Shown: positions 35,382 to 59,692, numbered from the stretch's first letter. The stretch is 64,000 nucleotides of DNA from an uncultured bacterium (GCA_965233125.1 CBDDRQ010000222.1:7806-71805); one strand, 5' to 3'. Program-made: numbers and translations. The notes: generated from the letters alone by a model not told the origin.

Positions 35382-35441
35382 CACGCGCGCCCCGGACCCT
35401 ATGGTTGAATGCAGCGAATTCAAGCCACCCAGGGGAGTCGG

Positions 35442-36281
35442 ATGGCAGGCCGCGAGACCACCGTGCTGGTCACTGGAGTCGTCGCTGACGGCGAGGCCGG
35501 CGCCGAGGGTGTGGAGGATTACGTGGCGCGGCTGGCGCAAACGCTGGCCCACGCCGCGCTCGTCAGCGGTGGGCGTGTCGCGGGCCGGCGGGAGCGCGAC
35601 GTGACGGCGCTCTTTCCCACGCCCGACGCCGCCGCGAGCGCTGCTCTGCGCATGCACGCGTACGCGCTCGCGCTACCTCCCATGGCCGCGAGGCTTGGCC
35701 TGCGCATGGCCGTGCATGGCGGGCCAGTTGGGCGCGGCGACGAGATCTCCGGCCGCACCATCGATCTCGCTCTGGAGCTGCTCGACGCGGCCGGCGCGGG
35801 CGAGGCGCTGATTTCGGGGCATGCCGCCGCAGGGCTCAGCCCGGGTCTGGGGCACTTCGTCGGGCCCCTCGGCTCGGGCCCGGAGGGCGCCAGCCGGCTG
35901 CTGCTCGGCGAGCTCGTCTTCCGCAACGAGGCGAAGCTCTACGCGCAACGGGCGCAGCGCACGCGCCTTCGCCTTGACTATCGATCGAAGAGCATCGTGC
36001 GAGGCCGGGAAGGGGATGCGGCGACCATCGGCAGCGACGCGGCGTGCGACCTCGCCGTGGAGGGGCAGGGCGCGGCGCGCCAGCATTGCACCATCCTGCG
36101 GCGCCAGGGCGCCTACCTGCTGCGCGATCACAGCGCCAGGGGCACTTTCGTGACGGCGGAGGGCGGCGCGGAGCTCGCCGTGCGCGGCGCGGAAATCGTG
36201 CTGACGGGGCGGGGAGTCATCTCCTTCGACCAGGCGGGCGCCGAGAGTAACGGGGTAGTGCGCTATAGCTGCGAACGCTGA
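35442..36281 (+). CDS. Second cyclase-like (degenerate) / FHA-like protein, tandem paralogue
   Basis: VLVTGVVADG, RERDVTALF and IDLALELLD replace the catalytic motifs. The FHA signature is also eroded (IGSD, AARQHC, SARGTFV). Start at ATG 35442 with RBS aggggag. Confidence 0.7.
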   Translation: MAGRETTVLVTGVVADGEAGAEGVEDYVARLAQTLAHAALVSGGRVAGRRERDVTALFPTPDAAASAALRMHAYALALPPMAARLGLRMAVHGGPVGRGDEISGRTIDLALELLDAAGAGEALISGHAAAGLSPGLGHFVGPLGSGPEGASRLLLGELVFRNEAKLYAQRAQRTRLRLDYRSKSIVRGREGDAATIGSDAACDLAVEGQGAARQHCTILRRQGAYLLRDHSARGTFVTAEGGAELAVRGAEIVLTGRGVISFDQAGAESNGVVRYSCER

Positions 36282-42910: not shown

Positions 42911-43825
42911 ATGAGCACGACCAGGGACGCCACGGTACTCTTCGCCGACGTGAGCGGCAGCACGGCGCTCTACGAGAAGGCGGGGGACGCCGCGGCGGCC
43001 AGGGCGATCGAGGGCTGCCTCGGCGCGATGCGCCTGGCGGTGGAGGCGAACCGCGGGCGCGTGGTGAAGACGATCGGCGACGAGGTGATGGCGCTCTTTC
43101 CCTCGCCGGATGCCGCGGCGGCGGCGGCGGTGCGCATGCACCTCGGCGTGGAGGCGCTTCCCGCGGTGGGGGGCAGCGCGCTCGGGGTGCGCATCGCTTT
43201 CCACGCCGGGCCGGTGGTGCAGCGCGAGGACGACGTCTTCGGCGACACGGTCAACCTCGCCTCCCGCCTCGCCGGGCAGGCGATCAAGGGACAGGTACTT
43301 ACTTCCGAAGCGACGGCGGCGATGCTCAGTCCGCTGCTGCGCAGCTCGACCCGGCGGCTCTACCCGATCCAGGTCAAGGGCAAGGCCGACGAGGTGGCGC
43401 TCTACGAGTTCGTCTGGCGGCGCAGCCCGGACGTGACCGACGTGGCGGGCCGCCTGTCCGTGCCGCGCGCGCCGGCGCTCGTGCTGCGGCTGCGCTACCG
43501 GGGGCGCGAGGTGATGGGCCGGCGGCTCAACGAGTCGCTGGTGATCGGGCGCGATCCCGGCTGCGATCTGGTGATCGCCGACATCAAGGCCTCGCGCCAG
43601 CATTGCAGCATCGAGCGGCGCGACGGCCAGTTCGTGCTGCGCGATCACAGCGCGAACGGCACCTACCTCACCGTGGCGGGCGAGCCCGAGCTCGCCTTGC
43701 AGCGCCAGGGGTGCGCCCTGCGCGGGCACGGCTGGATCGCGCTCGGCCTGCCCCGCTCGCCGGCGCGGGACGCGGTGGAGTATTTTTGCGAGGCCGTGGA
43801 AGATCCGCCGGACTTACCACCTTGA
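42911..43825 (+). CDS. Class III adenylate/guanylate cyclase (catalytic motifs intact) fused to an FHA domain
   Basis: VLFADVSGSTALYE, VKTIGDEVMALF, FGDTVNLASRLAG. FHA: IGRDPGCDLVI...ASRQHC...DHSANGTYL. Starts 3 nt after the rfbD stop. Confidence 0.8.
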   Translation: MSTTRDATVLFADVSGSTALYEKAGDAAAARAIEGCLGAMRLAVEANRGRVVKTIGDEVMALFPSPDAAAAAAVRMHLGVEALPAVGGSALGVRIAFHAGPVVQREDDVFGDTVNLASRLAGQAIKGQVLTSEATAAMLSPLLRSSTRRLYPIQVKGKADEVALYEFVWRRSPDVTDVAGRLSVPRAPALVLRLRYRGREVMGRRLNESLVIGRDPGCDLVIADIKASRQHCSIERRDGQFVLRDHSANGTYLTVAGEPELALQRQGCALRGHGWIALGLPRSPARDAVEYFCEAVEDPPDLPP

Positions 43826-43941
43826 AATTCCCGGTTCCATAACGGGAAATTCGAGGGTGCCGGTGGCTAGCGCCAGGCCGGCGGCCTTGACACGTGGATG
43901 CGGCGTTTATACATTACAAGCATACATCGCGAGATCCGACC

Positions 43942-44187
43942 ATGATTCGTACCCAGATCTATCTCAGCCCCGTGCAGCAGAAGGCGCTCAAGGCGCTGGC
44001 CGCGAGGACGGGCCGGACGCAGAGCGAGCTCATCCGGGACGCGATCGATCGATTCGTCGGTCAGCGCAAGGCCTCCGAGCGGGGCCCCGTCGTCAAGCGC
44101 TCAGCCGGACTCTGGAAGGACCGGACCGACCTGCCCGACTTCGCCGCCTTGCGGCGCGAAGCCGATCGCGTCGCGACGCGCGCTTAG
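43942..44187 (+). CDS. vapB: Ribbon-helix-helix (CopG/VapB-type) antitoxin
   Basis: MIRTQIYLSPVQQKALKALAARTGRTQSELIRDAIDRF, directly upstream of a PIN gene. Confidence 0.7.
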   Translation: MIRTQIYLSPVQQKALKALAARTGRTQSELIRDAIDRFVGQRKASERGPVVKRSAGLWKDRTDLPDFAALRREADRVATRA

Positions 44188-44202
44188 CGCCGCCGCCGGG
44201 CG

Positions 44203-44589
44203 ATGGCGCAAGCGCTCCTCCTGGACACCGATTTCCTGATTGATTTTCTGCGTGGACGAGCGCAGGCGGTCGCTTTCATGGAGGAGGATTCCCGGCCCAT
44301 GGCGGTTTCCGCGGTCACTGTTGCGGAGCTGCACGCAGGCGTGCGCCATGGAGCGGAGCAAGACCAGCTTGCCGAGCTGCTGTCGCTCTTCAGCCAGGTT
44401 GCGGTGGATTCGGACACGGCGGCGGAGGGCGGGCTGCTTCGGCGGGACTATGGACCCAGTCACGGCACCGGATTGATCGACGCGATCATCGCGGCGAGCG
44501 CTCTGCGCCACGGGCTGCGGCTCGTTACCTTGAACGCCAGGCACTACCCGATGCTGTCGGGAGTGATCGTTCCCTACCGCAAGCGGTGA
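44203..44589 (+). CDS. vapC: PIN-domain toxin
   Basis: LLDTDFLIDFL..., VTVAEL, DAIIAASAL and LVTLNARHY (acidic quartet pattern). Confidence 0.75.
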   Translation: MAQALLLDTDFLIDFLRGRAQAVAFMEEDSRPMAVSAVTVAELHAGVRHGAEQDQLAELLSLFSQVAVDSDTAAEGGLLRRDYGPSHGTGLIDAIIAASALRHGLRLVTLNARHYPMLSGVIVPYRKR

Positions 44590-44623
44590 CGGGGTCGCCC
44601 GAGGCGTAGGAAAAGCGATCAGC

Positions 44624-44827
44624 ATGAAAGCCCGGTACGACTTCTCGAAAGGCAGGCGCGGCGCCGTTATCGCCCAGAAGGGCAAGACGCGCATCTCGAT
44701 CTTCATCGATAACGCAATGCTGGAGCAGCTCAGGACCCGGGCTGAGAAGGCCGGGACGGGCTATCAATCGATGATGAACGACGCGCTGCGGAGCTACCTG
44801 CTTCGGAGCGCAAGCAAGAAGCGCTAA
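44624..44827 (+). CDS. BrnA-like antitoxin (CopG-like C-terminus), with no cognate BrnT
   Basis: YDFSKGRRG...KTRISIFIDNAMLEQLRTRAEKAGTGYQSMMNDALRSYL, the BrnA pattern. Confidence 0.6.
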   Translation: MKARYDFSKGRRGAVIAQKGKTRISIFIDNAMLEQLRTRAEKAGTGYQSMMNDALRSYLLRSASKKR

Positions 44828-44851: not shown

Positions 44852-44879
44852 GGAAAATGGGGTACGTCCCCATTTTTCC
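44852..44879. repeat. Palindromic REP-like unit and probable terminator
   Basis: ggaaaatggggtac/gtccccatttttcc. Same core family as 2497-2515. Confidence 0.6.
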
Positions 44880-44949: not shown

Positions 44950-45807
44950 ATGCGCCAGCAAGAGTCGATTCTGGAGTTCCACAGGGGCGTCTATTTCAAG
45001 GTCGCGATCCTCCTGTGCGCCGCGGCGATCGCGGCGTACGCGCTGCACGAAGTCCCCTCCGCGTACTACAAGCCCTACGGCGGCACCTGGCTCGGCTACA
45101 CCCTGGGCGGGGTCGCCGCCTTCCTCGTCCTGTGGATGATGCTGCTCGGCATCCGCAAGCGCCGCTACCGCTCGAGCGTCGGCACGCTGCACGGCTGGAC
45201 CTCCTCGCACGTGTACCTCGGGGGCGCGGCGATCGTCATCGCGACGCTGCACGGCGGCTTCGAGTTCGGCTGGAACGTGCACACGTTCGCCTACGCGCTG
45301 ATGGTGCTGGTCATCGCCACCGGGGTGTACGGCGTGTACGCCTATCTCCACTACCCGACGCTCATCACGCAGAACCTCTCGGGCGACACGCTGGAGTCGA
45401 CGCTGCTCAAGATCGCCGACCTCGACCGGCGCTGCCGCAGGATCGCGCTCGACCTGCCCGACCAGGCGAACGCGCTGGTGATCGGCGCGACGCGCGCCGC
45501 GGCGCGCGAGGCCGAGCTCGGCGGGAGCCTCCGCCAGCGCCTGCGCGGTGAGCGCGTGCGCTGCCCGACGCGGGAGGCGACCGCGAAGCTCATGTCGCTC
45601 GGCGCGGGCTACACCGGCAAGCAGGCGGCGGCCAACGGCCAGCTCGTGAGCGCGATGACGCGCAAGAGCGCGCTCATCGACCGCGTGCGCCGCCACCTGC
45701 GCTACAGCGCGCTGCTGGAGGTCTGGCTCTACGCGCACGTGCCGCTCTCCTTCGCGCTGCTCGCGGCGCTGATCGCGCACGTCGTCTCGGTCTTCTACTT
45801 CTGGTAG
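44950..45807 (+). CDS. Five-TM membrane protein, candidate dihaem b-type cytochrome / quinol-interacting subunit
   Basis: ATG 44950 with RBS ggggagg. Two TM helices each carry H-x13-H (HVYLGGAAIVIATLH; HVPLSFALLAALIAH). Confidence 0.55.
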   Translation: MRQQESILEFHRGVYFKVAILLCAAAIAAYALHEVPSAYYKPYGGTWLGYTLGGVAAFLVLWMMLLGIRKRRYRSSVGTLHGWTSSHVYLGGAAIVIATLHGGFEFGWNVHTFAYALMVLVIATGVYGVYAYLHYPTLITQNLSGDTLESTLLKIADLDRRCRRIALDLPDQANALVIGATRAAAREAELGGSLRQRLRGERVRCPTREATAKLMSLGAGYTGKQAAANGQLVSAMTRKSALIDRVRRHLRYSALLEVWLYAHVPLSFALLAALIAHVVSVFYFW

Positions 45808-45815
45808 GCGGCGCC

Positions 45816-47486
45816 CTGGAGCTGCTCCTCAAGAACGCGGACACCGGGGAGCAGCGGCGCCTGCCCGGCGCGAACTTCCAGGTCGGGCGCGGCACGCAGT
45901 GCGAGCTGCACCTGCCCGACGCGCGCGTCGCGCTCGTGCACGCGCGCATCTCGCTCGGCGCGCAGGGCGCGGTGATGGAGGCGGTCGAGCAGAAGTTCGT
46001 GCACAACGACCGCGAGGTGGCGGGCGCGCAGCTCGCGGTGGGCGACTTCGTCGAGATCGGGCCGTTCCTGCTGAAGGTGGAGGAGCCGCCGCCGGAGATC
46101 CCCCTCGCGCTCTCGCTGCGCCTGTCCAAGCGCGTCTCGGGCAAGAGCGGCAGCGTGGTCTTCCGCGCGCTCACGCTCGCGCCGCGGCTTTCCAAGCGCC
46201 GGCTCTCCTACGCGGCGTTCTTCGGCACGCTGCTCGTCGCGCTCGTCGCGCCGATCGCCGCCGACCTGTGGGGCGACCGCGAGATGCCGCTCGCGGAGCC
46301 GGCGCGCACCCAGGTGCTCGAGGCGGTGCAGGCGATGACGGTGGGCCTCTCCCAGGCGTGGAACCCGGGCGAGCTCTCGCGCGGGCACCAGAACTTCGCC
46401 CACGACTGCCGCGCCTGCCACCAGGAGCCCTTCGTGCAGGTGAAGGACGGCGCCTGCATGGCCTGCCACGGCGGCGTGCGCGAGCACGTGGCAAGAGCGA
46501 AGCTCGCCGGGCCGATGGCGCACACCCTCGCCGAGACGCGCTGCGCCGAGTGCCACCGCGACCACAAGGGCCGCGCCATGGCGCCGCAGTCGCAGGACCT
46601 GTGCGCGAGCTGCCACGCCGACGTGCGCCACGCCGGCGTGCTGGCCGCCTCGCACAACGTCTCGGACTTCGCCACCAACCACCCGCCGTTCCGGCTCTCG
46701 CTCGTCGACGCCGGCAAGCCCAAGGAAATCCGCCGCGTGCGCCAGCGCGACCCGCAGGCGAAGCTCGAGGAGCGCTCGGGGCTCAAGTTCAACCACGTGC
46801 TGCATCTCGATCCTGCGGGCGTACGCCACCCCGACGCCAGGAAAAGAAAAACGCTCGAATGCGCGAGCTGCCACGCGGTCGACCCCGAAGGCATCGGCAT
46901 GAAGCCGATCGAGATGGAGAAGCACTGCAGCGCCTGCCACACCCTCGCCTTCGAGCCCGCGGTGACGAGCCGCGAGGCGCCGCACGCGCCGCTCGCCGAG
47001 GTGGAGCGCACGCTGCGCGAGTTCTACGCGCGCCTGGTGCTGGGCGACGTGCCCGCGGGCGTCACCCCGCCGCGCGGCCTGCCGCGCCTTCGCCCCGGCG
47101 CGACCCCCACGCCCGAGGAGCGCCGCGCCGCGATGCGCATCGCCGACGAGAAGGCGCGCCGGGCGTTGAGGGAGTTGGTCGAGACCAGGAAGGTATGCAC
47201 CACATGTCATTACACAGAAAAGACAAAAGGGAGAGTTGAAATTGCACCTGTGTCGATGACCCAGAACTGGATGCCCCAGGCGCTCTTCCGCCACGACCGG
47301 CACGCGACGCAGACCTGCACGAGCTGCCACGAGGTGCGCAGCTCGCGCGTGGCCTCCGACGTGGCGATGCCCGAGATCGGCCGCTGCCGCGACTGCCACG
47401 GCGGCGCGCAGGCGAAGGCGGCGAGGGTCGCCTCCGACTGCGCCACCTGCCACGTTTTCCACGGCGGCAAGGCCCCGTGGCGATGA
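45816..47486 (+). CDS. Membrane-anchored decahaem cytochrome c with N-terminal FHA-like domain (start codon unresolved)
   Basis: Ten CXXCH motifs (CRACH, CMACH, CAECH, CASCH, CASCH, CSACH, CTTCH, CTSCH, CRDCH, CATCH). One TM helix (YAAFFGTLLVALVAPIAA). FHA-like FQVGRGTQCELHLPD...HARISL...GDFVEIGPFLL lies upstream of the first ATG/GTG/TTG (45936). Confidence 0.7.
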   Translation: MELLLKNADTGEQRRLPGANFQVGRGTQCELHLPDARVALVHARISLGAQGAVMEAVEQKFVHNDREVAGAQLAVGDFVEIGPFLLKVEEPPPEIPLALSLRLSKRVSGKSGSVVFRALTLAPRLSKRRLSYAAFFGTLLVALVAPIAADLWGDREMPLAEPARTQVLEAVQAMTVGLSQAWNPGELSRGHQNFAHDCRACHQEPFVQVKDGACMACHGGVREHVARAKLAGPMAHTLAETRCAECHRDHKGRAMAPQSQDLCASCHADVRHAGVLAASHNVSDFATNHPPFRLSLVDAGKPKEIRRVRQRDPQAKLEERSGLKFNHVLHLDPAGVRHPDARKRKTLECASCHAVDPEGIGMKPIEMEKHCSACHTLAFEPAVTSREAPHAPLAEVERTLREFYARLVLGDVPAGVTPPRGLPRLRPGATPTPEERRAAMRIADEKARRALRELVETRKVCTTCHYTEKTKGRVEIAPVSMTQNWMPQALFRHDRHATQTCTSCHEVRSSRVASDVAMPEIGRCRDCHGGAQAKAARVASDCATCHVFHGGKAPWR

Positions 47487-49288
47487 GGCGGGCGCTGCTG
47501 CTGATCGCAGTCTTTCTTTCGGGTTGCGGTGGAGGCGGAGGGGAGGGCGACCAGAGCGGATGCAGGGGGGATTGCGCAGTTTCGGTTTCTCTATCTGTTT
47601 TAGAAGTTGAACAGGTAGTTCGACAAGCGGTCCACGAAGCGCAAGCGCGAGGGGCGCCGGCGACGATCGCGGTGACCGACCGCGTCGGCAACGTGCTCGC
47701 GGTGTTCCGCATGACCGGCGCTTCGCCCACGGCGACGGTGAGCTCGAACCGCGGCGTCACCGGCGGGCTCGAGGCGGCGGTGGTGCCCGACGAGCTCGCG
47801 GCGATCGCCAAGGCGATGACCGGCGCCTACCTCTCCTCGGAGGGCAACGCCTTCAGCACGCGCACCGCGAGCCAGATCGTGCAGGAGAACTTCAACCCCG
47901 GCGAGACCAACGCGCCGGGCGGGCCGCTCTTCGGCGTGCAGTTCTCTTCCCTCACCTGCTCGGACGTGGTGAACGTCTCCGCGGCCGTGGTCGCCGGGCC
48001 GAAGGGCTCGCCGCTCGGCCTCGCCGCCGACCCGGGCGGGCTGCCGCTCTACAAGTCGGGCACGGTGGTGGGCGGCGTGGGCGTGATGTCGGACGGCGCC
48101 TACGGCCTCGACGCGAACGTGCTGGATGTCGACCAGGACGCGGACGAGCTCGTCGCGGTGGCGGGCGCGCGCGGGTTCGACGCGCCGGCGAACCGCCGCG
48201 CCGAGCGCATCACCGCCGACGGGCGGAGCTTCCGCTTCGTCGACAGCGAGCTCCTCGTCAGCGACCCGGCGGCGGCGCCGGCCTTCGCGGTGCTGCCCGG
48301 CGTGCTCGTCGACGTGCCGGGGTTCTTCAGCCCGGCGGCGGTGCGCGCGGGCACGGCGTACGGCACGCCGGCCTCGGGCTACCGGGCGGACGCGAGCGCG
48401 GCCTTCGCGGGCCTGGGCGTGTTCGTGCTCGACGACGGCGGCGGCACGGCGCGCTTCCCGCCGCTCGCCGGCACCGACGGCCTGCTCGCGCAGAATGAAG
48501 TGCAGACGATCCTCGCCGAGGCGATGAAGGTGGCGAACCGCACGCGCGGGCAGATCCGCCAGCCGCTCGGCTCGGTCGCGCAGGTGAGCGTCGCGGTGGT
48601 CGACACCACCGGCGCCATCCTCGGCCTGGTGCGCAGCCGCGACGCGCCGGTGTTCGGCACCGACGTGGCGGTGCAGAAGGCGCGCGGCGCGCTCGTCTTC
48701 TCGCACCCGAACAGCGCCACCGACCTCGCCGCGCTCGCCGCCGCCGCGCCCTACGCCGCGGCGATGCAGGCGCTCATCCCCGGCGCGCTCTCGGACGGCA
48801 CCGCGTACTCGAGCCGCTCGATGGGCAACCTCGCGCGCCCGTTCCTCCCCGACGGCATCAACGGCAACGGCCCCGGGCCGCTCTCGAAGCCCTTCGCGCA
48901 GTGGAGCCCGTTCTCCACCGGCCTGCAGCTCGACCTCGTCGCCGCGCGCCTGGTCGCCAACCTGCCGGTCCCCGCCGCCGGCGCCTGCACTGGCCTCGCG
49001 CGCGCGGCGAACGGCATCCAGATCTTCCCCGGCGGCTTTCCCATCTTCCGCGCTAGCGCGCTGGTGGGCGCGATCGGCGTCTCCGGCGACGGCGTCGACC
49101 AGGACGACCTCGTCGGCTTCCTCGGCCTCGCCAACGCCGGCGCCGCCCTCGGCTCCGGCGTCGGCAACGCCCCCGCCGCCGTGCGCTCGAGCAACATCGC
49201 CGTCCCCGGCGGCAACCTGCGCTACGCCGGCTGCCCCGTCGCCCCCTTCCTCGATTCGACCGTCAGTGATGCCTGCACCGGCCTCTGA
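47483..49288 (+). CDS. Lipoprotein with two GlcG/HbpS (DUF336) haem-binding-like domains
   Basis: ATGA overlap with the upstream stop. Lipobox LSGC. IAVTDRVGNVLAVFRM...GGLPLYKSGTVVGGVGVMSDG, then VAVVDTTGAILGLVRS...FPGGFPIF...LVGAIGVSGDGVDQDD. Confidence 0.7.
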   Translation: MRRALLLIAVFLSGCGGGGGEGDQSGCRGDCAVSVSLSVLEVEQVVRQAVHEAQARGAPATIAVTDRVGNVLAVFRMTGASPTATVSSNRGVTGGLEAAVVPDELAAIAKAMTGAYLSSEGNAFSTRTASQIVQENFNPGETNAPGGPLFGVQFSSLTCSDVVNVSAAVVAGPKGSPLGLAADPGGLPLYKSGTVVGGVGVMSDGAYGLDANVLDVDQDADELVAVAGARGFDAPANRRAERITADGRSFRFVDSELLVSDPAAAPAFAVLPGVLVDVPGFFSPAAVRAGTAYGTPASGYRADASAAFAGLGVFVLDDGGGTARFPPLAGTDGLLAQNEVQTILAEAMKVANRTRGQIRQPLGSVAQVSVAVVDTTGAILGLVRSRDAPVFGTDVAVQKARGALVFSHPNSATDLAALAAAAPYAAAMQALIPGALSDGTAYSSRSMGNLARPFLPDGINGNGPGPLSKPFAQWSPFSTGLQLDLVAARLVANLPVPAAGACTGLARAANGIQIFPGGFPIFRASALVGAIGVSGDGVDQDDLVGFLGLANAGAALGSGVGNAPAAVRSSNIAVPGGNLRYAGCPVAPFLDSTVSDACTGL

Positions 49289-49370
49289 AAATCGGGGTCA
49301 GAGCCCGATTTCCTCGCGGGCACCGCTTGGCCTCGCACTTTCCGGAAATCGGGCTCTGACCCCGATTTTC
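49287..49370. repeat. REP/MITE-like element with a 27-nt perfect inverted repeat
   Basis: 49287-49313 gaaaatcggggtcagagcccgatttcc is the reverse complement of 49344-49370, with a 30-nt spacer. Overlaps the TGA stop of the DUF336 gene. Confidence 0.85.
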
Positions 49371-49373
49371 TTG

Positions 49374-51077
49374 ATGGTCTTTTTCTTCGGAAATGCTTTC
49401 TCACAGGAAAGCGTGGAACGAAGAAGGCCCGGAATCGAGCCGACGCCGCAGGTGGAGCGCGAGGCGCCGGCGCCGAGGCCGCCGCTGGTGGAGCGAGAGT
49501 CGCTGCCCGTCGACGACCGCTGGCGCATCATGAAGTCGCTCGAATTGCTGCCCTACCGGCGCTTCGATCCCTACAACCCGAACGTGCTGAAGGGCGACCT
49601 GCCGCTCGAGAGCGGCGCGTTCGCGGGCTGGTTCCTCAACCTCACCGCGGTCTCCGACACGGTGCTGGAGTTCCGCCGCCTGCCCACGCCCGCGGGCGTG
49701 CAGGCGACGCAGACGCCGACGCCGGGGCCGTTCGCGGCCGGGCGGCAGGCGACGCTCTCGGAGAACCTGATCCTCAGCCTCGCGCTCATCAAGGGCGACA
49801 CGGTGTTCCGCCCGCCCGACTACGAGCTGCGCATCGTGCCGGTGGTGAACCTCAACCGCTCGGAGGCCGAGGACCGGCGCGTGCTGCAGGCCGACCCCAA
49901 CCAGGGCCGCGCGCGCAACGACAGCTTCGTCGGCATCCAGGAGCTCTTCGTCGACAAGCACCTGCGCGACGTCTCGGCGAACTACGACTTCGACAGCCTG
50001 CGCGTGGGCGTGCAGCCCTTCAACGCCGACTTCCGCGGGTTCCTGTTCATCGACCAGCCCTTCGGCGTGCGCGTGTTCGGCACGCGCGAGGCGAACCGCT
50101 GGCAGTACAACGCCGCGTGGTTCCGGCGCCTCGAGAAGGACACCAACAGCGGCTTGAACGACATCGGCGAGCGCCTGCGCGCCGACGACGTCTACGCCTT
50201 CAACCTCTACCGCCAGGACTGGCCGGTGCTGGGCTTCACCACGCAGGGCATCGTGCTCCACAACCGCAACCGCGAGGGCGGGCGCGGGCAGTTCCTGAAC
50301 GAGAACCGCTTCGTCGAGCGCCCGGCGGTGTTCGGCAGCGGCCGGCCGCGCAAGTACGACGTCACCTACCTCGGCGGCAGCGGCGACGGGCACTTCGGCC
50401 GCTGGAACCTCTCGGCCACCGCCTACCACGCCTTCGGCGAGGAGGAGCGCGGCCAGCTCTCCGGGCGCGCCGAGCGCATCACCGCGTGGTTCGGCGCCGC
50501 CGAGCTCTCGCGCGACTTCGACTGGATGCGCCTGCGCGCGCACGGCGCCTACGCCTCGGGCGACCGCGACCCCTTCGACGGCGACGCCGAAGGCTTCGAC
50601 GCGGTGCTCGAGAACCCGGCCTTCGCCGGCGCCGACACCAGTTACTGGATCCGCCAGTCGGTGCCGCTCATCGGCGGCGGCGGCGTCGCGCTCGCGATCC
50701 GCAACGGCATGCTCGCGTCGCTGCGCACCTCGCGCGAGCACGGGCAGTCGAACTTCACCAACCCGGGCCTGCGCCTCGTCGGCGTCGGCGCCGACTTCGA
50801 CCTCGCGCCGGAGCTTCGCCTCATCGCCAACTTCAACCACATCGCCCTCGACAACCTCTCCTCGCTCGCCGCGCTGAGGAACCAGCGGCTCACGAGCGGC
50901 GACATCGGCTGGGACCTCTCGGCCGGCGTCCAGTACCGGCCGTTCTTCACCCAGAATGTGGTGGTGGACGCCTCCCTCGCCGTCCTCTTCGCCGAGGACG
51001 GCCTGCGCGCGCTCTACGGCGATGCGGTCGGCAGGAAGCAGTATTCGGCGCTTCTGAATATGGTGTTGACGTTTTGA
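49374..51077 (+). CDS. Putative outer-membrane beta-barrel protein
   Basis: 567 aa with many alternating-hydrophobic strands and a C-terminal ...ALLNMVLTF (terminal Phe). The N-terminal signal peptide is very short (MVFFFGNAFSQE) if the ATG at 49374 is used. Confidence 0.6.
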   Translation: MVFFFGNAFSQESVERRRPGIEPTPQVEREAPAPRPPLVERESLPVDDRWRIMKSLELLPYRRFDPYNPNVLKGDLPLESGAFAGWFLNLTAVSDTVLEFRRLPTPAGVQATQTPTPGPFAAGRQATLSENLILSLALIKGDTVFRPPDYELRIVPVVNLNRSEAEDRRVLQADPNQGRARNDSFVGIQELFVDKHLRDVSANYDFDSLRVGVQPFNADFRGFLFIDQPFGVRVFGTREANRWQYNAAWFRRLEKDTNSGLNDIGERLRADDVYAFNLYRQDWPVLGFTTQGIVLHNRNREGGRGQFLNENRFVERPAVFGSGRPRKYDVTYLGGSGDGHFGRWNLSATAYHAFGEEERGQLSGRAERITAWFGAAELSRDFDWMRLRAHGAYASGDRDPFDGDAEGFDAVLENPAFAGADTSYWIRQSVPLIGGGGVALAIRNGMLASLRTSREHGQSNFTNPGLRLVGVGADFDLAPELRLIANFNHIALDNLSSLAALRNQRLTSGDIGWDLSAGVQYRPFFTQNVVVDASLAVLFAEDGLRALYGDAVGRKQYSALLNMVLTF

Positions 51078-54000
51078 TAAAAAAGATAAAAACCATTTTG
51101 CTTGGAATGTGCCTCTCTGCTTCTTCGTGGGCGGATTGCACTTCCTGCCACACCGCAACCGACCGGGCGACGATGCACGCGAACCCGGCGGTGTCGATCG
51201 CGTGCACCGGCTGCCACGGCGGCGACGAGAGCGTGAAGCGGCCGGCGGGAAGCGAGTACCGAGGCGAGAAGGGGGCGGAGTATTTCGAGGCGATGTACAG
51301 GGCGCACGTGCAGCCGCGCCATCCGCGCGAGTGGGGCTGGCCGGCGGCGGCGAACCCGGAGCGCTCCTACACGCTGCTCAACCGCGAGCGCCCGGGGTTC
51401 GTGCGCTTCATGAACCCGGGCGACTACCGCGTGGCGCGCGAGACGTGCGGAAAGTGCCACATGGACATCGTGCAGGCCGCCGAGCGCAGCCTGATGGCCA
51501 CCGGCGCCATGTTCTGGAACGGCGCCGCCTACAACAACGGCATGCTGCCCTTCAAGCGCGGGGTGCTGGGCGAGTCCTATACGCGGGACGGGCGGCCGGC
51601 GGCGGTGCGCGGGCCCGCGGGAGCTGATCCGGCGCGCGGCATCCTCGCCGAGCTCTGGCCGCTGCCGGCGTGGGAGACGGTGCCGCCGGCGGACGTCTTC
51701 CGCGTCTTCGAGCGCGGCGGGCGGGTGATCAGCAGCATCTTTCCGGAGGTGGGGCTACCCAACCCCACCGGGCGGCTGCAGACGCTGGACGAGCCCGGCC
51801 GTCCCGACATCCGCCAGTCGAACCGCGGCCCGGGCACCGGCGCGCGCATCGCGGTGCCGCTCATCAACATCGCGAAGACGCGCCTCAACGACCCGATGAT
51901 GTGGTTCCTGGGCACGAACGACCACCCGGGCGACTACCGCTCCTCGGGCTGCACCTCGTGCCACGTGGTGTACGCGAACGACCGGGAGCCCGCGCATTCC
52001 GGGCCGTACGCGAAGCACGGCCACGAGGGAAAGAGCGTAAGCGCCGACCCGACCATCCCGAAGGACCGCCCCGGGCATCCCATCAAGCACGAGCTCACGC
52101 GCGCCATTCCTTCAGCGCAGTGCATGGTGTGCCACATGCACCAGCCCAACGTGTTCGTGAACAGCTTCTACGGCACGACGATGTGGGACTACGAGGCCGA
52201 CGCGCCGTCGATGTGGCCCAAGCAACAGCGCTACCCGAGCGCCGAGGAGCGCCGGCGCATCAACGACCGCAACCCCGAGTCGGCGGCGGCGCTGGGCAAC
52301 TGGGGGAACGTGAGCTTCCTCAAGGACGTGTGGATGCTCAACCCGAAGCTGAAAGACACGCAGTTCTCCGACTACCACGGCCACGGCTGGAACTTCCGCG
52401 CCGTGTTCAAGCGCGACCGCAAGGGCACGCTGCTCGACGCCGAGGACAAGCCGGTCGCCGACGACGACCCGGCGAAGTTCAAGAAGGCGGTGCACCTGAA
52501 GTCGATCCACCTGGAGAAGGGCATGCACTGCGTCGACTGCCACTTCTCGCGCGACGCGCACGGCACGGGCGAGCTCCACCAGGAGGTGGCCGCGGCGATC
52601 GAGGTGGAGTGCGCCGACTGCCACGGCACCGCCGACCGCTACCCGCGTCTTCGCACCACCGGGCCGGCGGCGCCCACGGGCGGCACCGACCTCTCGCTCG
52701 CGCGCACGCCCGACGGGCGCCGGCGCTTCGAGTGGCAGGGGAGCGTGCTCTACCAGCGCTCGATGGTGACCCCGGGCCTCGAATGGCGCGTCTCGCTCGT
52801 CAAGGACAGCGTCGACCCGAAGCACGGCGAGTACAACGCAAGATCGGCGCGCGCGAAGCTCGTGGCGCGCGGGATCTTCGACAACTACAAGCAGAGCTTC
52901 GGCACCTCGGTGCCGGCGTCCGAGCGCGCGCACCGCGACGACGAGATGGCGTGCTACAGCTGCCATTCGTCGTGGGCGACGAGCTGCTCGGGCTGCCACC
53001 TGCCGATCGAGGCGAACTGGAAGACCGAGCGGCTGCACTACGAGGGCGGCGAGACGCGCAACTTCGCCACCTACAACCCGCAGGTCGCGCGCTCGGACGC
53101 CTACCAGCTCGGCCGCCACGGCAGCGTGAAGAAGAACCGCATCGCGCCGGTGCGCTCGTCCTCGGCGCTGGTGCTCTCCTCCACCAACGCCAACCGCGAG
53201 CGCATCTACGTGCAGCAGCCGCCGACCGCGGCGAGCGGCTACTCCAGCCAGGCGTTCGCGCCGCACTACCCGCACACCGAGAGGAAGACCGAGACCAAGG
53301 GCTGCGCCGACTGCCACGTCTCGGCGGCGAACGACAACAACGCCATCATGGCGCAGCTCCTGCTGCACGGCACCGGGTTCGTCAACTTCGTGGGCCTCAA
53401 CGCCTGGGTGGGCGAGGAGCGCCACGTCGAGGCGGTGCAGGTCACCGAGTGGGAAGAGCCGCAGGCGGTGATCGGCTCCTACCTGCACCGCCACGCGTAT
53501 CCCGACTGGTACTCGGCGCATCAGCAAAGAAAGCAACGACTTCCGGAAGCGCACGATCGCGCTACCGGCGGGGGCGTCGGCTGCCTGCAGCTCCGCGGCG
53601 AGTACCTGCACGTCGCCGAAGGCGCCGGCGGCTACCGGGTCTACGACGTCGCCTCGATCGCCAACAAGGGCGTCTCGCAGCGCATCGTCACCGCCCCCTT
53701 CTCCGCGCGCGGGCACGATGCGCACGTCGCGACCCCGGAAGCCACCTGCGTCGCGCTCCCGACCAACCAGCCCATCGCCCCTTTCAAGAACGCGGGCGAG
53801 CGCATGCGCAAGGACAACCAGGAGCAGCCCTTCCACCCCATCTACCGCTACGCCGCGATCACCGACGCGCGCGAGGGGCTGATCCTCGTCGACGTCGACA
53901 CCCTGCAAGACGGCGAGCCGCGCAACAACTTCCTGAAACGCGCGCTAACCTGGGACGGCGGCGGCGCCCTGAAGGGCGCCCGCCACGTCACGCTAGCCGG

Positions 54001-54688
54001 GCATTACGCCTATGTTTCTACGGATAAGGGGGTCGTGGTTGTAAACCTGGATGACCCCCTCAAGCCGAAGATTGCAAATACCCTTCACCTTCCGAACTCA
54101 AAAGCGACCGCGCTGCAGTTCCGCTACCTCTTCATCGTCGAGGGCATCGGCTTGCGCGTCGCCGATATCACCATTCCCGAAAGAATCAGGATTCTGGATG
54201 CAGAAATTCCGCTGACTGATGCCCATAAGGTCTACGTAGCGAGAACCTATGCTTACGTCGCGGCGGGGAAGCAGGGGCTGGCCATCGTCGACATCGAGAA
54301 CCCGGAGAAGCCCAAGCTGCATTCGCTCTTCGACGCGGGCGGGGCGCTTTCCGACGCGCGAGACGTGGTGGTGGGCTCGACCAACGCCTCGCTCTTCGCG
54401 TACGTCGCCGACGGCGCGAACGGGCTCAAGGTGATCCAGCTCACCGCGCCCGACACGCAGCCGAAGTTCTACGGCTTCAGTCCCGAGCCCAAGCCGCGGC
54501 TCATCGCGTGGCGCAAGACGCGAAGCCCGGCGCTCGCGCTGTCGCGGGGCCTCGAGCGCGACCGCGCGGTGGACGAGACCGGGCACCAGATGGCGGTGTT
54601 CGGGCGCGTCGGCTCCAGACCGTTCAACCTCGAAGAGCAGCGGCGTCTTTATCTCAAGCCCGATGGGACGCCGTGGGTGGTCAGGTGA
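51074..54688 (+). CDS. Secreted decahaem cytochrome c fused to a C-terminal LVIVD-repeat beta-propeller
   Basis: TTG start in a TTGA overlap. Signal peptide IKKIKTILLGMCLSASSWA. Ten CXXCH motifs (CTSCH, CTGCH, CGKCH, CTSCH, CMVCH, CVDCH, CADCH, CYSCH, CSGCH, CADCH). Last ~370 aa carry repeats such as YAYVSTDKGVVVVNLDDPLKP, YAYVAAGKQGLAIVDIENPEKP and FAYVADGANGLKVIQL. Confidence 0.75.
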   Translation: MIKKIKTILLGMCLSASSWADCTSCHTATDRATMHANPAVSIACTGCHGGDESVKRPAGSEYRGEKGAEYFEAMYRAHVQPRHPREWGWPAAANPERSYTLLNRERPGFVRFMNPGDYRVARETCGKCHMDIVQAAERSLMATGAMFWNGAAYNNGMLPFKRGVLGESYTRDGRPAAVRGPAGADPARGILAELWPLPAWETVPPADVFRVFERGGRVISSIFPEVGLPNPTGRLQTLDEPGRPDIRQSNRGPGTGARIAVPLINIAKTRLNDPMMWFLGTNDHPGDYRSSGCTSCHVVYANDREPAHSGPYAKHGHEGKSVSADPTIPKDRPGHPIKHELTRAIPSAQCMVCHMHQPNVFVNSFYGTTMWDYEADAPSMWPKQQRYPSAEERRRINDRNPESAAALGNWGNVSFLKDVWMLNPKLKDTQFSDYHGHGWNFRAVFKRDRKGTLLDAEDKPVADDDPAKFKKAVHLKSIHLEKGMHCVDCHFSRDAHGTGELHQEVAAAIEVECADCHGTADRYPRLRTTGPAAPTGGTDLSLARTPDGRRRFEWQGSVLYQRSMVTPGLEWRVSLVKDSVDPKHGEYNARSARAKLVARGIFDNYKQSFGTSVPASERAHRDDEMACYSCHSSWATSCSGCHLPIEANWKTERLHYEGGETRNFATYNPQVARSDAYQLGRHGSVKKNRIAPVRSSSALVLSSTNANRERIYVQQPPTAASGYSSQAFAPHYPHTERKTETKGCADCHVSAANDNNAIMAQLLLHGTGFVNFVGLNAWVGEERHVEAVQVTEWEEPQAVIGSYLHRHAYPDWYSAHQQRKQRLPEAHDRATGGGVGCLQLRGEYLHVAEGAGGYRVYDVASIANKGVSQRIVTAPFSARGHDAHVATPEATCVALPTNQPIAPFKNAGERMRKDNQEQPFHPIYRYAAITDAREGLILVDVDTLQDGEPRNNFLKRALTWDGGGALKGARHVTLAGHYAYVSTDKGVVVVNLDDPLKPKIANTLHLPNSKATALQFRYLFIVEGIGLRVADITIPERIRILDAEIPLTDAHKVYVARTYAYVAAGKQGLAIVDIENPEKPKLHSLFDAGGALSDARDVVVGSTNASLFAYVADGANGLKVIQLTAPDTQPKFYGFSPEPKPRLIAWRKTRSPALALSRGLERDRAVDETGHQMAVFGRVGSRPFNLEEQRRLYLKPDGTPWVVR

Positions 54689-55995
54689 AAGGCTTGGTCT
54701 TTCTAATGGGGTTCTTCCTTGGTACAGCGTTCGCGGAGACGCCACTGCCGCCGCAGTCGCCGCACAAAACCCTCGGCGTCGCCACGTGCGCCTCGAGCCT
54801 GTGCCACGGCTCGGTGCAGCCCTGGAGCGACGGCAAGATCCGCCAGGACGAGTACGTGCTGTGGTCGAGGAATGATCCGCATGCACGCAGTTACGAGGTT
54901 CTCCTGAATAAAACTTCTGAAGAGATAGTGAAAAAGCTCGGACTGCCGAAACCCGCGCACGAGACCGCCGAGTGCCTGGACTGCCACACGCACAACGTGC
55001 CGCCGGCACGGCGCGGGCCGGACTTCCTCGTCGCCGACGGCATTCAGTGCGAGGCTTGTCACGGGCCGGCCGGTGGCTGGCTGAAGAGCCACGTCGAGAA
55101 GGACGCGAAGCGGGGGGCGAGCCTCGCGCGCGGGCTCTTTCCGACGCGCAACCCGGTGCGGCGCGGCGAGCTTTGCATGAGCTGCCACTTCGGCAACGCG
55201 CAGAAGCTGGTCACGCACCGCATGATGGCCGCGGGGCATCCGCGCCTCGCCTACGAGTTCGACACCTTCACGCACCTGCAGCCGGCGCACTACGGCGGCG
55301 CACGCGGCGCCGCGGGCGCCGAGGGGCTCGCCGACGGCGTGCGCAACTGGGCGATCGGCCAGGCGCTGATGGCCGAGACGCTGCTCTGGCTGCTGGTGGA
55401 TCCGAAGCGCGGCCGCGACGGGTTCTTTCCCGAGCTGGTGCTCTTCGACTGCCACGCCTGCCATCACCCGATGTCGGACAAGCGCAACGCCGGCGCGCGC
55501 CTGGGCGTGGCGCCGGGCGCGGTGCGCCTGAACGACGCGAACCTCATCATGGTCCGCCACATCGCGCGCCGCGTCGCGCCGGGCGAGGCCGAGGCGCTCG
55601 CGCAGGCGAGCAAGGCGCTGCACGCGGCGCTCGCCGGCGGCGGCGACGTTCTTCTGCAGGCAAGAGAGTTACGTGAAAAGATAGGGACACTTGTTTCAGG
55701 GATAGAAAAACATCAATTCTCCGCGGCGGACCTGCGCGGTATCTTCCAGGGGCTGATCGACGACGGGCTGTCTGGGCATTACAGCGACTACCAGGGAGCG
55801 GAGCAGGCAGCGATGGCATTGCAGGCAATAGCGGACTTCATGGCGCGGCGCGGCCTTGCCGCGGCGCCGGCGCTGCGCCCGGCGCTCGAGCGCGTGATGG
55901 CGGCGGTGGCGAACGACGAGGCCTACCGGCCTGAGCAATTCGCCGCGGCGCTGCGCGAGCTGCGCGCGGGCATCGAGCAGGCGGGAAGGCAATGA
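54685..55995 (+). CDS. Periplasmic multihaem cytochrome c (c554-like), 4 CXXCH + 1 CX4CH
   Basis: GTGA overlap. Signal peptide. CASSLCH, CLDCH, CEACH, CMSCH, CHACH. Helical C-terminal half. Confidence 0.7.
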   Translation: MKGLVFLMGFFLGTAFAETPLPPQSPHKTLGVATCASSLCHGSVQPWSDGKIRQDEYVLWSRNDPHARSYEVLLNKTSEEIVKKLGLPKPAHETAECLDCHTHNVPPARRGPDFLVADGIQCEACHGPAGGWLKSHVEKDAKRGASLARGLFPTRNPVRRGELCMSCHFGNAQKLVTHRMMAAGHPRLAYEFDTFTHLQPAHYGGARGAAGAEGLADGVRNWAIGQALMAETLLWLLVDPKRGRDGFFPELVLFDCHACHHPMSDKRNAGARLGVAPGAVRLNDANLIMVRHIARRVAPGEAEALAQASKALHAALAGGGDVLLQARELREKIGTLVSGIEKHQFSAADLRGIFQGLIDDGLSGHYSDYQGAEQAAMALQAIADFMARRGLAAAPALRPALERVMAAVANDEAYRPEQFAAALRELRAGIEQAGRQ

Positions 55996-58474: not shown

Positions 58475-59692
58475 ATGGGGGCGATTCACCGCATCCTGCT
58501 GATCCTGGCGATCGGCGGTTCGTGTTTTTTTTCCGCTGTCCACGCGCAGCCCGCCGGCACCGTGATGAGCGTCGAATCGCTCGAGGGCGAGGTCCTCGCC
58601 GGCGGCGCGCCCATCTTCCGCGGCCAGCGCCTTCGCCCCGGCACCCGCATCACCACGGGCCCGGGCGCGTCGATCGCGCTGCGCTTCGACGACGGCATGT
58701 ACGTGGTGCTCAATGAGCTCACGATCCTCGTCCCGGTGGATTTCCGCGCCAGCACCCGCGCGGTGTTCAACCTGCTGAGCGGCGCTGTGCGCGTGCGCAC
58801 GGGCGAGGTTGCGCGCTCGAATCCGAAGCAGTTCATCTTCCGCACCAGCCAGGCGCAGCTCGGCGTCGAGGGGCCGGCAGACTTCAGCGTCGCCGTCTCC
58901 GACGCCGCCTACCTGAACGTGGCGAGCGGCACCGTCATCGCCGTGAACACCGCCGGCACGAGCCGCATCGCGGCAGGCAGCACCGCCCGCGTGCCGAGCG
59001 CGGCCAGCCCCGCGAGCGTCGTCGCGCTCGCCTCGCTGCCCGCTTCCATCTCGAGCGCTTTCCGGGTGATGGAGCTGCTGCCGGGGTCGGCCGCCGCCGA
59101 CGCGCCGCCAGCGCCGGTCGCCGCCGCGCCGGCGCCCGCAGCCGAGGCGCCCGCAGGGACGGCGACGCCCCCGGACCCCCAGACGCCAAAGATGTGGGTC
59201 GGCGTGAGTGTCGGCCAGGTCAAATTCGACGAAGGGCTGACCTCGCGCCTCATCACCTCCGGCACCGTCGATGGCGAGGCCACCGGCTTCAAGCTCTTCG
59301 CAGGCTACGCCTTCCACCGCAACTTCGGCGTCGAGGTCGGCTATGCCGACCTGGGCGAGGCGAGCTACAGCGGCAGCTTCAACGGCACGCCGATCACCGG
59401 GGGCAAGCTCCAGGTCGGCGGCCTCGACGCCGCGCTCCTCGCGCGCGCCTCTCTCGGCGAGCGGTTGACGCTGTTCGGCAAGGTCGGCGTGTTTGTCTGG
59501 GAGGCGGAAGCCACCGACACCGCGGCCGGCGTCCCTTTCACGGCGAAGACCGACGGCAACGACGCCTTCTTCGGCCTCGGCGCCGCATATGCGATCACGC
59601 GGGCAGCCGCCGTGCGCCTCGAGGCGGAAGGCCGCAAGGTCGGCAACGACTCGGTCAACCTCCTCTCGATCGGCCTCGAGCTCCGCTTCTAA
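58475..59692 (+). CDS. FecR-domain protein fused to an OmpA-like/OMP beta-barrel domain
   Basis: Signal peptide. The N-terminus is paralogous to 8185-8952 (IALRFDDGMYVVLNE...FIFRTSQAQLGVEG). C-terminal WVGVSVGQ...FKLFAGYAF...VEVGYADLG...LSIGLELRF. Confidence 0.65.
   Translation: MGAIHRILLILAIGGSCFFSAVHAQPAGTVMSVESLEGEVLAGGAPIFRGQRLRPGTRITTGPGASIALRFDDGMYVVLNELTILVPVDFRASTRAVFNLLSGAVRVRTGEVARSNPKQFIFRTSQAQLGVEGPADFSVAVSDAAYLNVASGTVIAVNTAGTSRIAAGSTARVPSAASPASVVALASLPASISSAFRVMELLPGSAAADAPPAPVAAAPAPAAEAPAGTATPPDPQTPKMWVGVSVGQVKFDEGLTSRLITSGTVDGEATGFKLFAGYAFHRNFGVEVGYADLGEASYSGSFNGTPITGGKLQVGGLDAALLARASLGERLTLFGKVGVFVWEAEATDTAAGVPFTAKTDGNDAFFGLGAAYAITRAAAVRLEAEGRKVGNDSVNLLSIGLELRF

Follow-up and report, generated by a model that had tools for sequence, protein, structure and literature searches.

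A conserved CTG codon behind a partner gene's stop is the predicted start of an FHA-decahaem cytochrome in an uncultured bacterium

Where does a protein begin when its reading frame is open far upstream of the first ATG, GTG or TTG? This question is raised by a multihaem cytochrome gene in a stretch of 64,000 nucleotides from an uncultured bacterium (GCA_965233125.1 CBDDRQ010000222.1:7806-71805), which we call the window and whose positions serve as coordinates throughout. The frame that carries the ten CXXCH motifs of the cytochrome (coordinate mod 3 = 0) has its last upstream stop, a TGA, at 45549, and its first ATG, GTG or TTG is a GTG at 45936. Upstream of this GTG the frame offers only CTG codons (at 45561, 45723, 45801, 45816, 45822, 45861, 45906 and 45912). 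A first-pass annotation of the sequence had already recognised that the frame is open well before 45936. That annotation read an FHA-like domain in the upstream part of the frame and named three ways in which it could be translated: a non-canonical start, a recoding event or a sequence error. Here, we compare the window with 12 related loci (13 loci in total) and argue that the gene starts at the CTG at 45816, directly behind the stop codon of an upstream gene for a membrane protein. We consider it likely that this CTG-started, partner-coupled FHA-decahaem cytochrome acts as the inner-membrane subunit of an electron-transfer cluster, with its FHA domain as a docking module.

Read from 45816, the translation is LELLLKNADTGEQRRLPGANFQVGRGTQCELHLPDARVALVHARISLG...VGDFVEIGPFLLKVEE, with a predicted N-terminal peptide of (f)M-ELLLKNADTGEQR. 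The gene (45816-47486, plus strand) encodes 556 residues, which comprise an FHA-fold N-terminus, one transmembrane (TM) helix and a decahaem c-type cytochrome domain. By prediction, the product is a bitopic inner-membrane protein that joins an FHA-type domain to a ten-haem domain through this single helix. The nearest full-length homologue (P0002, 85% identity) starts with MELLLKNADTGEQ, in alignment with the window codon at 45816.

An NTG triplet occupies this aligned position in 13 of 13 loci. It is CTG in six (the window, L001, L005, L006, L007 and L008), GTG in four (L002, L010, L003 and L004), TTG in two (L009 and L011) and ATG in one (L133), so that variation is confined to the first base while positions 2 and 3 are constant. 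The leucine codons that follow vary at their third base instead (CTG/CTC and CTC/CTT/TTT). Because base 1 alone varies in the triplet, whereas the neighbouring leucine codons vary at base 3, the triplet is best read as an initiation codon and not as a sense codon for leucine. One base separates the CTG from the GTG of L002 and L010, and a sequencing or assembly error could in principle have turned the one into the other. The same CTG recurs, however, in six contigs that come from different samples and assemblers, share 72-93% amino-acid identity and have diverged flanks, and we give next to no credence to an error.

Within the CTG clade, pairwise synonymous divergence (dS) is 0.17-0.43 (residues 96-556). 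In a neighbour-joining tree the CTG loci fall into two groups on either side of the GTG/TTG loci, and L011 (TTG) and L133 (ATG) are successive outgroups. CTG would thus have been either present since the origin of the clade and retained, or acquired on two occasions, and in both cases tolerated over evolutionary time.

The codons between the CTG and the first canonical start evolve as coding sequence. Over codons 2-40 (45819-45935), the ratio of non-synonymous to synonymous substitution (dN/dS) in the CTG clade is 0.11-0.58, no higher than in the remainder of the protein, and there are zero indels and zero stops. Variable sites are distributed over the three codon positions as 5/3/14 in the CTG clade and as 6/3/24 over nine close loci, that is, the window and its eight closest relatives (chi-square against equal thirds, p ~0.009 and ~1e-5, respectively). 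By these measures, codons 2-40, all upstream of 45936, are under purifying selection.

This bears directly on the alternative that the CTG lineage translates the protein chiefly or exclusively from a canonical codon further downstream, for instance the GTG at 45936, in which case the first 40 codons would be a remnant, or two isoforms would exist. It is true that CUG initiates poorly in E. coli (10.1101/063800; PMC11497404), that a GTG stands at codon 41 in six of six CTG loci, and that gene callers picked downstream starts. Against this stand the purifying selection, third-position-dominated variation and lack of indels in codons 2-40 of the CTG clade, and no Shine-Dalgarno-like sequence precedes 45936. 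In addition, Val41 lies within a conserved RVALVHAR motif, which means that the amino acid explains the GTG there; L010 has GCG at codon 41, and the window has CTG in place of the other internal GTG (codon 31). The product of a start at 45936, deprived of three strands, could not fold as an FHA domain according to the structural model described below. We therefore regard a downstream start as improbable.

If the start lies upstream of 45936, which CTG is used? The first-pass annotation had put forward 45801, 45816 and 45822, and the comparison retains only the second. Both 45801 and 45822 are in frame in the window. The spacer between the upstream stop and the start triplet varies in length, though (4, 7, 8, 9, 11 or 18 nt), which puts the equivalent of 45801 out of frame in four loci (L007, L009, L011 and L133), and the codon at 45822 is CTC in three (L005, L007 and L008). 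The CTG at 45801, which overlaps the upstream stop, is conserved because it is part of Phe-Trp coding in the upstream gene. Orthologues with canonical starts begin at the equivalent of 45816, and initiation at either of the other two CTG codons is very unlikely. Since the spacer varies in both sequence and length, there is no conserved coding in this frame upstream of the start triplet. The orthologue alignment that had been suggested as a check thus places the beginning of conserved coding at the equivalent of 45816, where relatives have GTG, TTG or ATG, and not at 45936. From this alignment, the true start is predicted to be the CTG at 45816.

Recoding was the remaining option. A frameshift or readthrough that fuses the upstream membrane protein to the FHA-cytochrome might seem plausible given that only 8 nt lie between the genes, and that the two share a frame in L003 and L004, where they are a TAA and six codons apart. 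But the frame relation to the upstream gene differs between loci, and relatives use ordinary starts. The junction contains no slippery heptamer and no stimulatory RNA fold; its predicted fold is no more stable than that of shuffled sequence (z = 0.41). As the C-terminus of the upstream protein is probably periplasmic, a fusion would also turn the product around, with the haem domain inside the cell and the FHA domain outside. Recoding is hence a far-fetched explanation, and of the three ways of translation a non-canonical start is the one that stands. The TAG at 45805-45807, which had been taken as a stop in the cytochrome frame, is in fact the stop of the upstream gene and is read in another frame.

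Translation table 11 counts CTG among the initiators, and infC of E. coli begins with AUU. The cytochrome gene resembles such genes without an AUG, GUG or UUG start in that a near-cognate NTG sits at a conserved start position, which implies weak initiation. It differs from them in that CTG is kept across a diverged clade, 8 nt behind the stop of a partner gene. A scan of a metagenome collection with the DNA pattern TTCTGGTAGN{3,10}TGGARCTNCT proved too permissive: it matched at least 80 loci, and among the matches listed none encoded a relative.

How could a CTG at this position be translated? In the nine close loci, stop and start are separated by a spacer of 7-9 nt, which measures 4 nt in L011, 11 nt in L133 and 18 nt in L003 and L004. 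Its sequence is variable, while the NTG behind it is constant. An AGGCGG at 45806-45811 resembles a Shine-Dalgarno site. On the other side of the gene, the ATG of the downstream gene overlaps the cytochrome stop as ATGA. Because the partner stop lies 4-18 nt before the start in 13 of 13 loci, together with the ATGA overlap downstream, the operon looks translationally coupled throughout. Termination-reinitiation works efficiently only where genes overlap or are at most about 10 nt apart, and gene pairs of this kind are enriched for subunits of complexes (PMC10666635). In E. coli reporters, CUG initiates at 1-2% of the AUG rate (10.1101/063800). We propose that the CTG would be decoded by initiator tRNA as a weak start, and that a ribosome terminating at the partner stop, 8 nt away, probably re-initiates there. 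This would result in low expression of the cytochrome, stoichiometrically tied to translation of the partner. A further paper on non-canonical re-initiation (PMC4648390) was set aside, as it concerns a Shaker potassium channel and is framed in eukaryotic terms (40S scanning, Kozak context).

The FHA-like domain is where the position of the start matters most. Pfam PF16697 (Yop-YscD_cpl, FHA clan) matches the N-terminal ~100 residues with 40.4 bits, above its gathering cut-off of 33.2, and the classical FHA model PF00498 stays below its cut-off on the same domain (15.6 vs 20.7 bits). An AlphaFold2 model, built with 112 aligned family members as input, has residues 1-103 at a predicted local distance difference test score (pLDDT) above 90. 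It contains 11 strands, of which the first comprises residues 2-7. In a Foldseek search of the PDB, the 50 best matches are all FHA domains, with a best E value of 1e-5 and a target-normalised TM-score of up to 0.80; they include GarA, FhaA, OdhI, Rv1747, EmbR, DgcB and the type III secretion system protein 4d9v. Profile and structure searches, named earlier as a further check, thus recover the FHA scaffold that had been proposed from the sequence. As strand 1 begins at residue 2, the domain needs the start at 45816. A start at 45936 would remove strands 1-3, the Gly-Arg loop and the HLPD motif, and so cut the domain in half, as had been anticipated.

Aligned with FhaA, the FHA-like domain retains Gly24-Arg25 and His42. 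The phosphothreonine-binding Ser is replaced by Ala39, which hardly varies within the family, and there is no counterpart to the Asn of the S/T-x-N-G motif. Of the Arg, Ser and Asn contacts that characterise phosphothreonine-binding FHA domains, Ser and Asn are therefore missing, which agrees with the substitutions noted in the first pass. The family does keep a near-invariant motif, consisting of His32-Leu33-Pro34-Asp35, Arg37, Ala39-Leu40 and His42-Ala43. Because the phosphothreonine-binding Ser and Asn are lost, yet a family-specific surface motif is strongly conserved, the domain probably serves, independently of phosphorylation, as a cytoplasmic module for docking or regulation, much like the FHA-like domains of YscD- and GltG-type proteins. 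Its binding partner is probably a fixed one in the cytoplasm that is not phosphorylated, for which the cytoplasmic insert of the upstream five-TM protein and the flavoprotein of the cluster are candidates.

Behind the FHA-like domain, the protein has one hydrophobic segment (~residues 129-153), in accordance with the single TM helix described before. In the family alignment Ser126, Arg128 and Leu130 do not vary, and Lys127 and Arg129 hardly do. Since basic residues (RLSKRR) sit N-terminal of this only helix, the N-terminus would be cytoplasmic and the C-terminus periplasmic. The predicted periplasmic part carries exactly ten CXXCH motifs (residues 198-546), beginning at residues 198, 214, 243, 263, 349, 371, 461, 501, 524 and 542, and all ten are kept in 13 of 13 loci. 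With Pfam scores of 59.2 bits for Cytochrome_C7 (cut-off 24.8) and 46.4 bits for Cytochrom_c3_2 (cut-off 25), the region is a predicted multihaem c-type cytochrome of the c3/c7 superfamily. It falls outside the MtrA/DmsE decahaem family (TIGR03508; 23.3 bits vs a cut-off of 192.2), and Pfam and NCBIfam returned none of the NapC/NirT/NrfH/CymA quinol dehydrogenase families at E<=1. Unlike the NapC/NirT-type layout, in which a tetrahaem domain comes straight after an N-terminal TM helix, the window protein has a domain of ~125 residues before the TM helix and ten haems behind it.

The partner protein upstream has homologues nearly all of which are ~285 residues long (248-296), with at least 2450 found at E<=1e-5. 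A mechanical call of open reading frames (ORFs) begins its gene at 44857; homologues favour 44950. In every locus that extends far enough, the gene lies directly upstream of the FHA-cytochrome. This includes the alphaproteobacterial contigs L003 and L004, from metagenome-assembled genomes (MAGs), whose cytochrome is 33-35% and whose partner is 50% identical; they were the only matches of a single-protein-query scan of GTDB species genomes and served as outgroups. Two histidine pairs, His87/His101 in TM3 and His263/His277 in TM5, are invariant in the partner, and the members of each pair are 14 residues apart. If the strongly basic TM2-TM3 loop faces the cytoplasm, His87 and His263 would lie towards the cytoplasmic side of the membrane and His101 and His277 towards the periplasmic side, an arrangement that would suit a dihaem b spanning the membrane. 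The partner is probably a dihaem b-type cytochrome, an assignment made because of the histidine pattern and a sub-threshold Pfam match. A PF01292 (cytochrome b561 / Ni_hydr_CYTB) annotation is precomputed for many of its homologues. The protein also carries two conserved cysteines (162 and 205) in its well-modelled cytoplasmic helical insert (residues ~136-250).

What might such a pair do? We propose that a conserved cluster of seven genes serves electron transfer and that the FHA-decahaem protein is its inner-membrane subunit. The five-TM partner, with its two histidine pairs, would bind two b haems and by means of them pass electrons across the membrane. In the periplasm, electrons would travel along the decahaem chain, in one direction or the other, between the membrane and the downstream proteins, namely an HbpS-like lipoprotein, a barrel protein, a second decahaem protein with LVIVD repeats and a c554-like cytochrome. 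At the cytoplasmic end of the chain, a flavo-iron-sulphur protein with domains that bind cyclic nucleoside monophosphates (cNMPs) might serve as electron donor or acceptor. All seven genes recur, in unchanged order, in L133, a Burkholderiales MAG with a cytochrome of 54% identity.

Several points weigh against this picture. The case for CTG as a start codon in use is one of conservation only, and the Shine-Dalgarno-like AGGCGG is not conserved (L009 has CACCGGC). In E. coli, CUG initiation complexes are less stable than those with AUG, GUG or UUG (PMC11497404), and initiation factor 3 (IF3) discriminates against non-canonical starts (PMC2268962). Owing to this instability and discrimination, expression from the CTG could be very low. 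The partner scores 28.5 bits against PF01292, below the cut-off of 30.1. Its AlphaFold2 model is poor (mean pLDDT 65), and neither a profile search of PDB sequences nor Foldseek (E<=0.001) gave a PDB match. Finally, no gene for a Ser/Thr kinase or phosphatase was noticed in the vicinity of the cluster.

A different role is conceivable, in which the protein is chiefly a transmembrane redox sensor. Here, the redox state of the periplasmic haems would be passed via the helix to the FHA domain, which in turn would bind or let go of an effector in the cytoplasm, such as a protein of cyclic-nucleotide signalling. FHA domains usually have regulatory roles, and a recent preprint also takes the FHA domain of a Ferrigenium cytochrome as regulatory (10.64898/2026.01.22.701106). 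Moreover, a class III cyclase gene lies upstream in the window (cyclase-FHA) and in L002 (cyclase-PilZ), and the flavoprotein of the cluster has two cNMP-binding domains. Still, ten conserved haems, c7/c3 'nanowire'-type domains and co-operonic multihaem proteins suit electron transfer better. The cyclase neighbour is absent in L009, in L133 and in the P0010 contig, and the gene with which the cytochrome gene is tightly coupled encodes a membrane protein rather than a signalling protein. We consider a primary sensor role unlikely, if worth keeping in mind, and favour the electron-transfer subunit. More speculatively still, and with considerable doubt, the electron-transfer proposal can be extended: the coupled pair may be the inner-membrane core of a widespread, uncharacterised trans-envelope electron conduit of Beta- and Alphaproteobacteria, which would draw electrons from a cNMP-regulated flavo-iron-sulphur protein and have its assembly or activity gated from the cytoplasm by the FHA domain independently of phosphorylation, and in one clade CUG re-initiation would deliberately set a low subunit ratio.

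The first-pass annotation had not recognised the architecture as a described one. This needs qualifying: there is a large family in the databases, and we found two mentions in the literature, a table of 2023 (PMC9900912) and a preprint of 2026 (10.64898/2026.01.22.701106). A word-indexed search gave at least 342 homologues of FHA clan plus cytochrome, most with both Pfam domain types. Those with names are a 'cytochrome c3 family protein' or an 'FHA protein' from Burkholderiales or Betaproteobacteria MAGs. An exhaustive search gave at least 633 clusters at 50% identity (E<=1e-30), most of 550-620 residues and aligning from ~residue 12-22 onward. The window protein shares the features of this FHA-TM-multihaem family, with an N-terminal FHA domain, one TM helix, CXXCH motifs in the family range of 9-10 and an adjacent five-TM gene.

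In the pangenome of the Gallionellaceae, cytochrome cluster 403 of Table 1 is a 'Forkhead-associated protein' with 10 CXXCH motifs, present in 27 genomes (PMC9900912). The preprint on Ferrigenium straubiae describes a nonahaem cytochrome ('NHC') with a cytosolic FHA domain, encoded beside five-TM and 4Fe-4S proteins in a cluster that is expressed under all tested conditions, and states that FHA domains were previously unreported with multihaem cytochromes (10.64898/2026.01.22.701106). The NHC resembles the protein studied here in having a cytosolic FHA domain, one TM helix, a periplasmic multihaem domain and no signal peptide, next to a five-TM protein, with an Fe-S protein in the cluster and in a betaproteobacterial setting. 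The Ferrigenium NHC, compared by its published description and not by sequence, differs in having nine haems instead of ten. Its neighbours nirK and an SHP-like gene were not seen in the window. The preprint mentions neither a CTG start nor the histidine pattern of the five-TM partner, and found no redox motif in the equivalent five-TM protein (10.64898/2026.01.22.701106). The FHA-decahaem architecture is thus barely described rather than undescribed, and the family is already in databases. What appear to be new are the conserved CUG start in a coupled context, the systematic truncation by gene callers and the bis-His pattern of the partner.

Other systems share parts of this design. YscD/EscD of type III secretion and GltG of Myxococcus gliding also have an FHA-like domain in the cytoplasm that one TM helix joins to a periplasmic domain. 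In them, too, the FHA-clan domain is devoid of the canonical phosphothreonine-binding residues. The best Pfam match of the window protein is PF16697 (Yop-YscD_cpl), and a weak GltG profile match covers its FHA-TM region. However, its periplasmic part is a decahaem cytochrome and not a ring-building or motility domain, and no secretion or gliding genes occur nearby. The Geobacter CbcL/Cbc complexes and anchors of the CymA/NrfH type join a membrane haem-b module to an inner-membrane-anchored periplasmic multihaem c module, and are presumed to link electrons from the cytoplasm or the quinone pool to periplasmic carriers. To our knowledge, none of these systems has an FHA domain. The arrangement described here differs from them in that the predicted b and c modules are encoded by separate, translationally coupled genes, for which no membership in the respective hidden Markov models was found.

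The choice of start codon has visible consequences for annotation. Database proteins started downstream (P0001 and P0008-P0012) have no FHA-clan Pfam annotation. All members of the CTG clade whose database gene call was examined (five contigs plus P0010) are truncated and have lost the FHA annotation, and the first canonical start of the window would likewise lose it. In L011 (1298-1366), P0016 is called from an internal GTG despite an in-frame TTG 4 nt after the upstream stop. As this TTG-start protein is also truncated, truncation is not confined to members with a CTG start. Gene finders restricted to ATG, GTG and TTG shorten the protein, drop half of its FHA domain and fail here systematically, so that surveys of the domain architecture of multihaem cytochromes would undercount the FHA-decahaem family. 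That family is large (hundreds of 50%-identity clusters) and co-inherited with a conserved five-TM protein; should the pair indeed move electrons across the inner membrane, it would be a candidate for a missing link in the electron-transport chains of iron oxidisers and related organisms. For translation, a natural, evolutionarily retained bacterial CUG start behind a partner stop offers a test case for the idea that reinitiation relaxes start-codon choice.

The features of the operon are listed in Table 1.

Table 1. Positions in the window of the features of the FHA-decahaem cytochrome gene and of the genes around it
Feature	Position	Strand	Basis or remark
Upstream partner, 285 aa (amino acids), five predicted TM helices and cytoplasmic helical insert	44950..45807	+	homologue-supported start
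Junction: TAG of the upstream gene (45805-45807) and 8-nt spacer	45805..45815	+	sequence
Coding sequence of the FHA-decahaem cytochrome	45816..47486	+	terminated by TGA at 47484-47486
Predicted CTG initiation codon of the FHA-decahaem cytochrome	45816..45818	+	alignment with orthologue starts
Predicted cytoplasmic FHA-like domain, residues 1-103	45816..46124	+	PF16697, AlphaFold2, Foldseek
First canonical start codon, GTG (Val41)	45936..45938	+	picked by mechanical gene call; not the true start as read here
Predicted single TM helix, ~residues 129-153	46200..46274	+	sole Kyte-Doolittle window above 1.6; RLSKRR in front
Predicted periplasmic decahaem c-type cytochrome region, ten CXXCH	46407..47453	+	motif scan, Pfam
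Lipoprotein, three HbpS-like (PF03928) domain matches, 77.6 bits	47483..49288	+	lipobox-like LSGC at N-terminus
Probable outer-membrane beta-barrel protein	49266..51077	+	inferred; weak Alginate_exp match (17.4 bits); C-terminus ...VLTF
Second decahaem protein, 1204 aa, LVIVD beta-propeller repeat	51074..54688	+	ten CXXCH; LVIVD, Cytochrom_c3_2, Cytochrome_C7
Cytochrome c554-like multihaem protein	54508..55995	+	four CXXCH and one CX3-4CH; PF13435 37.5 bits
Cytoplasmic flavoprotein, 799 aa	55992..58391	+	pyridine-nucleotide-disulphide oxidoreductase, two cNMP-binding and 4Fe-4S ferredoxin (dicluster) domains

Downstream of the cytochrome, the HbpS-like lipoprotein is syntenic in L007, L009, L011 and L133, and the gene for the barrel protein in L011 and L002. 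The mechanical ORF call starts the lipoprotein at a GTG at 47477 instead. In L002 (9662-13203), the matches to the HbpS-like and barrel genes of the window are broken into several pieces that lie in different frames, which suggests either frameshift errors in a long-read-style assembly or pseudogenes. The second decahaem gene begins in an AT-rich patch, TTGATAAAAAAGATAAAAACC, which is unusual for a sequence of 70% guanine plus cytosine (GC), and has an apparent TTG start. For the c554-like gene the true start is uncertain and probably lies downstream of 54508. Directly after the cluster (58475-59692) follows the gene for one protein that combines a FecR domain with an OmpA-like outer-membrane beta-barrel.

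Upstream of the operon by ~1 kb, and 2 kb from the cytochrome start, lies a gene for a class III nucleotide cyclase with a canonical FHA domain (PF00498, 49.7 bits; 42911-43825). A second FHA protein is encoded 9 kb upstream (35409-36281), and L002 has a cyclase-PilZ gene at the position that corresponds to the cyclase-FHA gene of the window. Together with the cNMP-binding flavoprotein in the cluster, the upstream cyclase genes hint at cyclic-nucleotide control. Between the cyclase and the operon (43894-44827), the window contains toxin-antitoxin genes, which comprise a ribbon-helix-helix (RHH) antitoxin with a PIN toxin (VapBC-like) and a lone BrnA-type antitoxin. This stretch is lower in GC content (0.63-0.66 vs about 0.72). 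In L133, a BrnT toxin and a 66-residue gene are found ~5.5 kb upstream of the operon.

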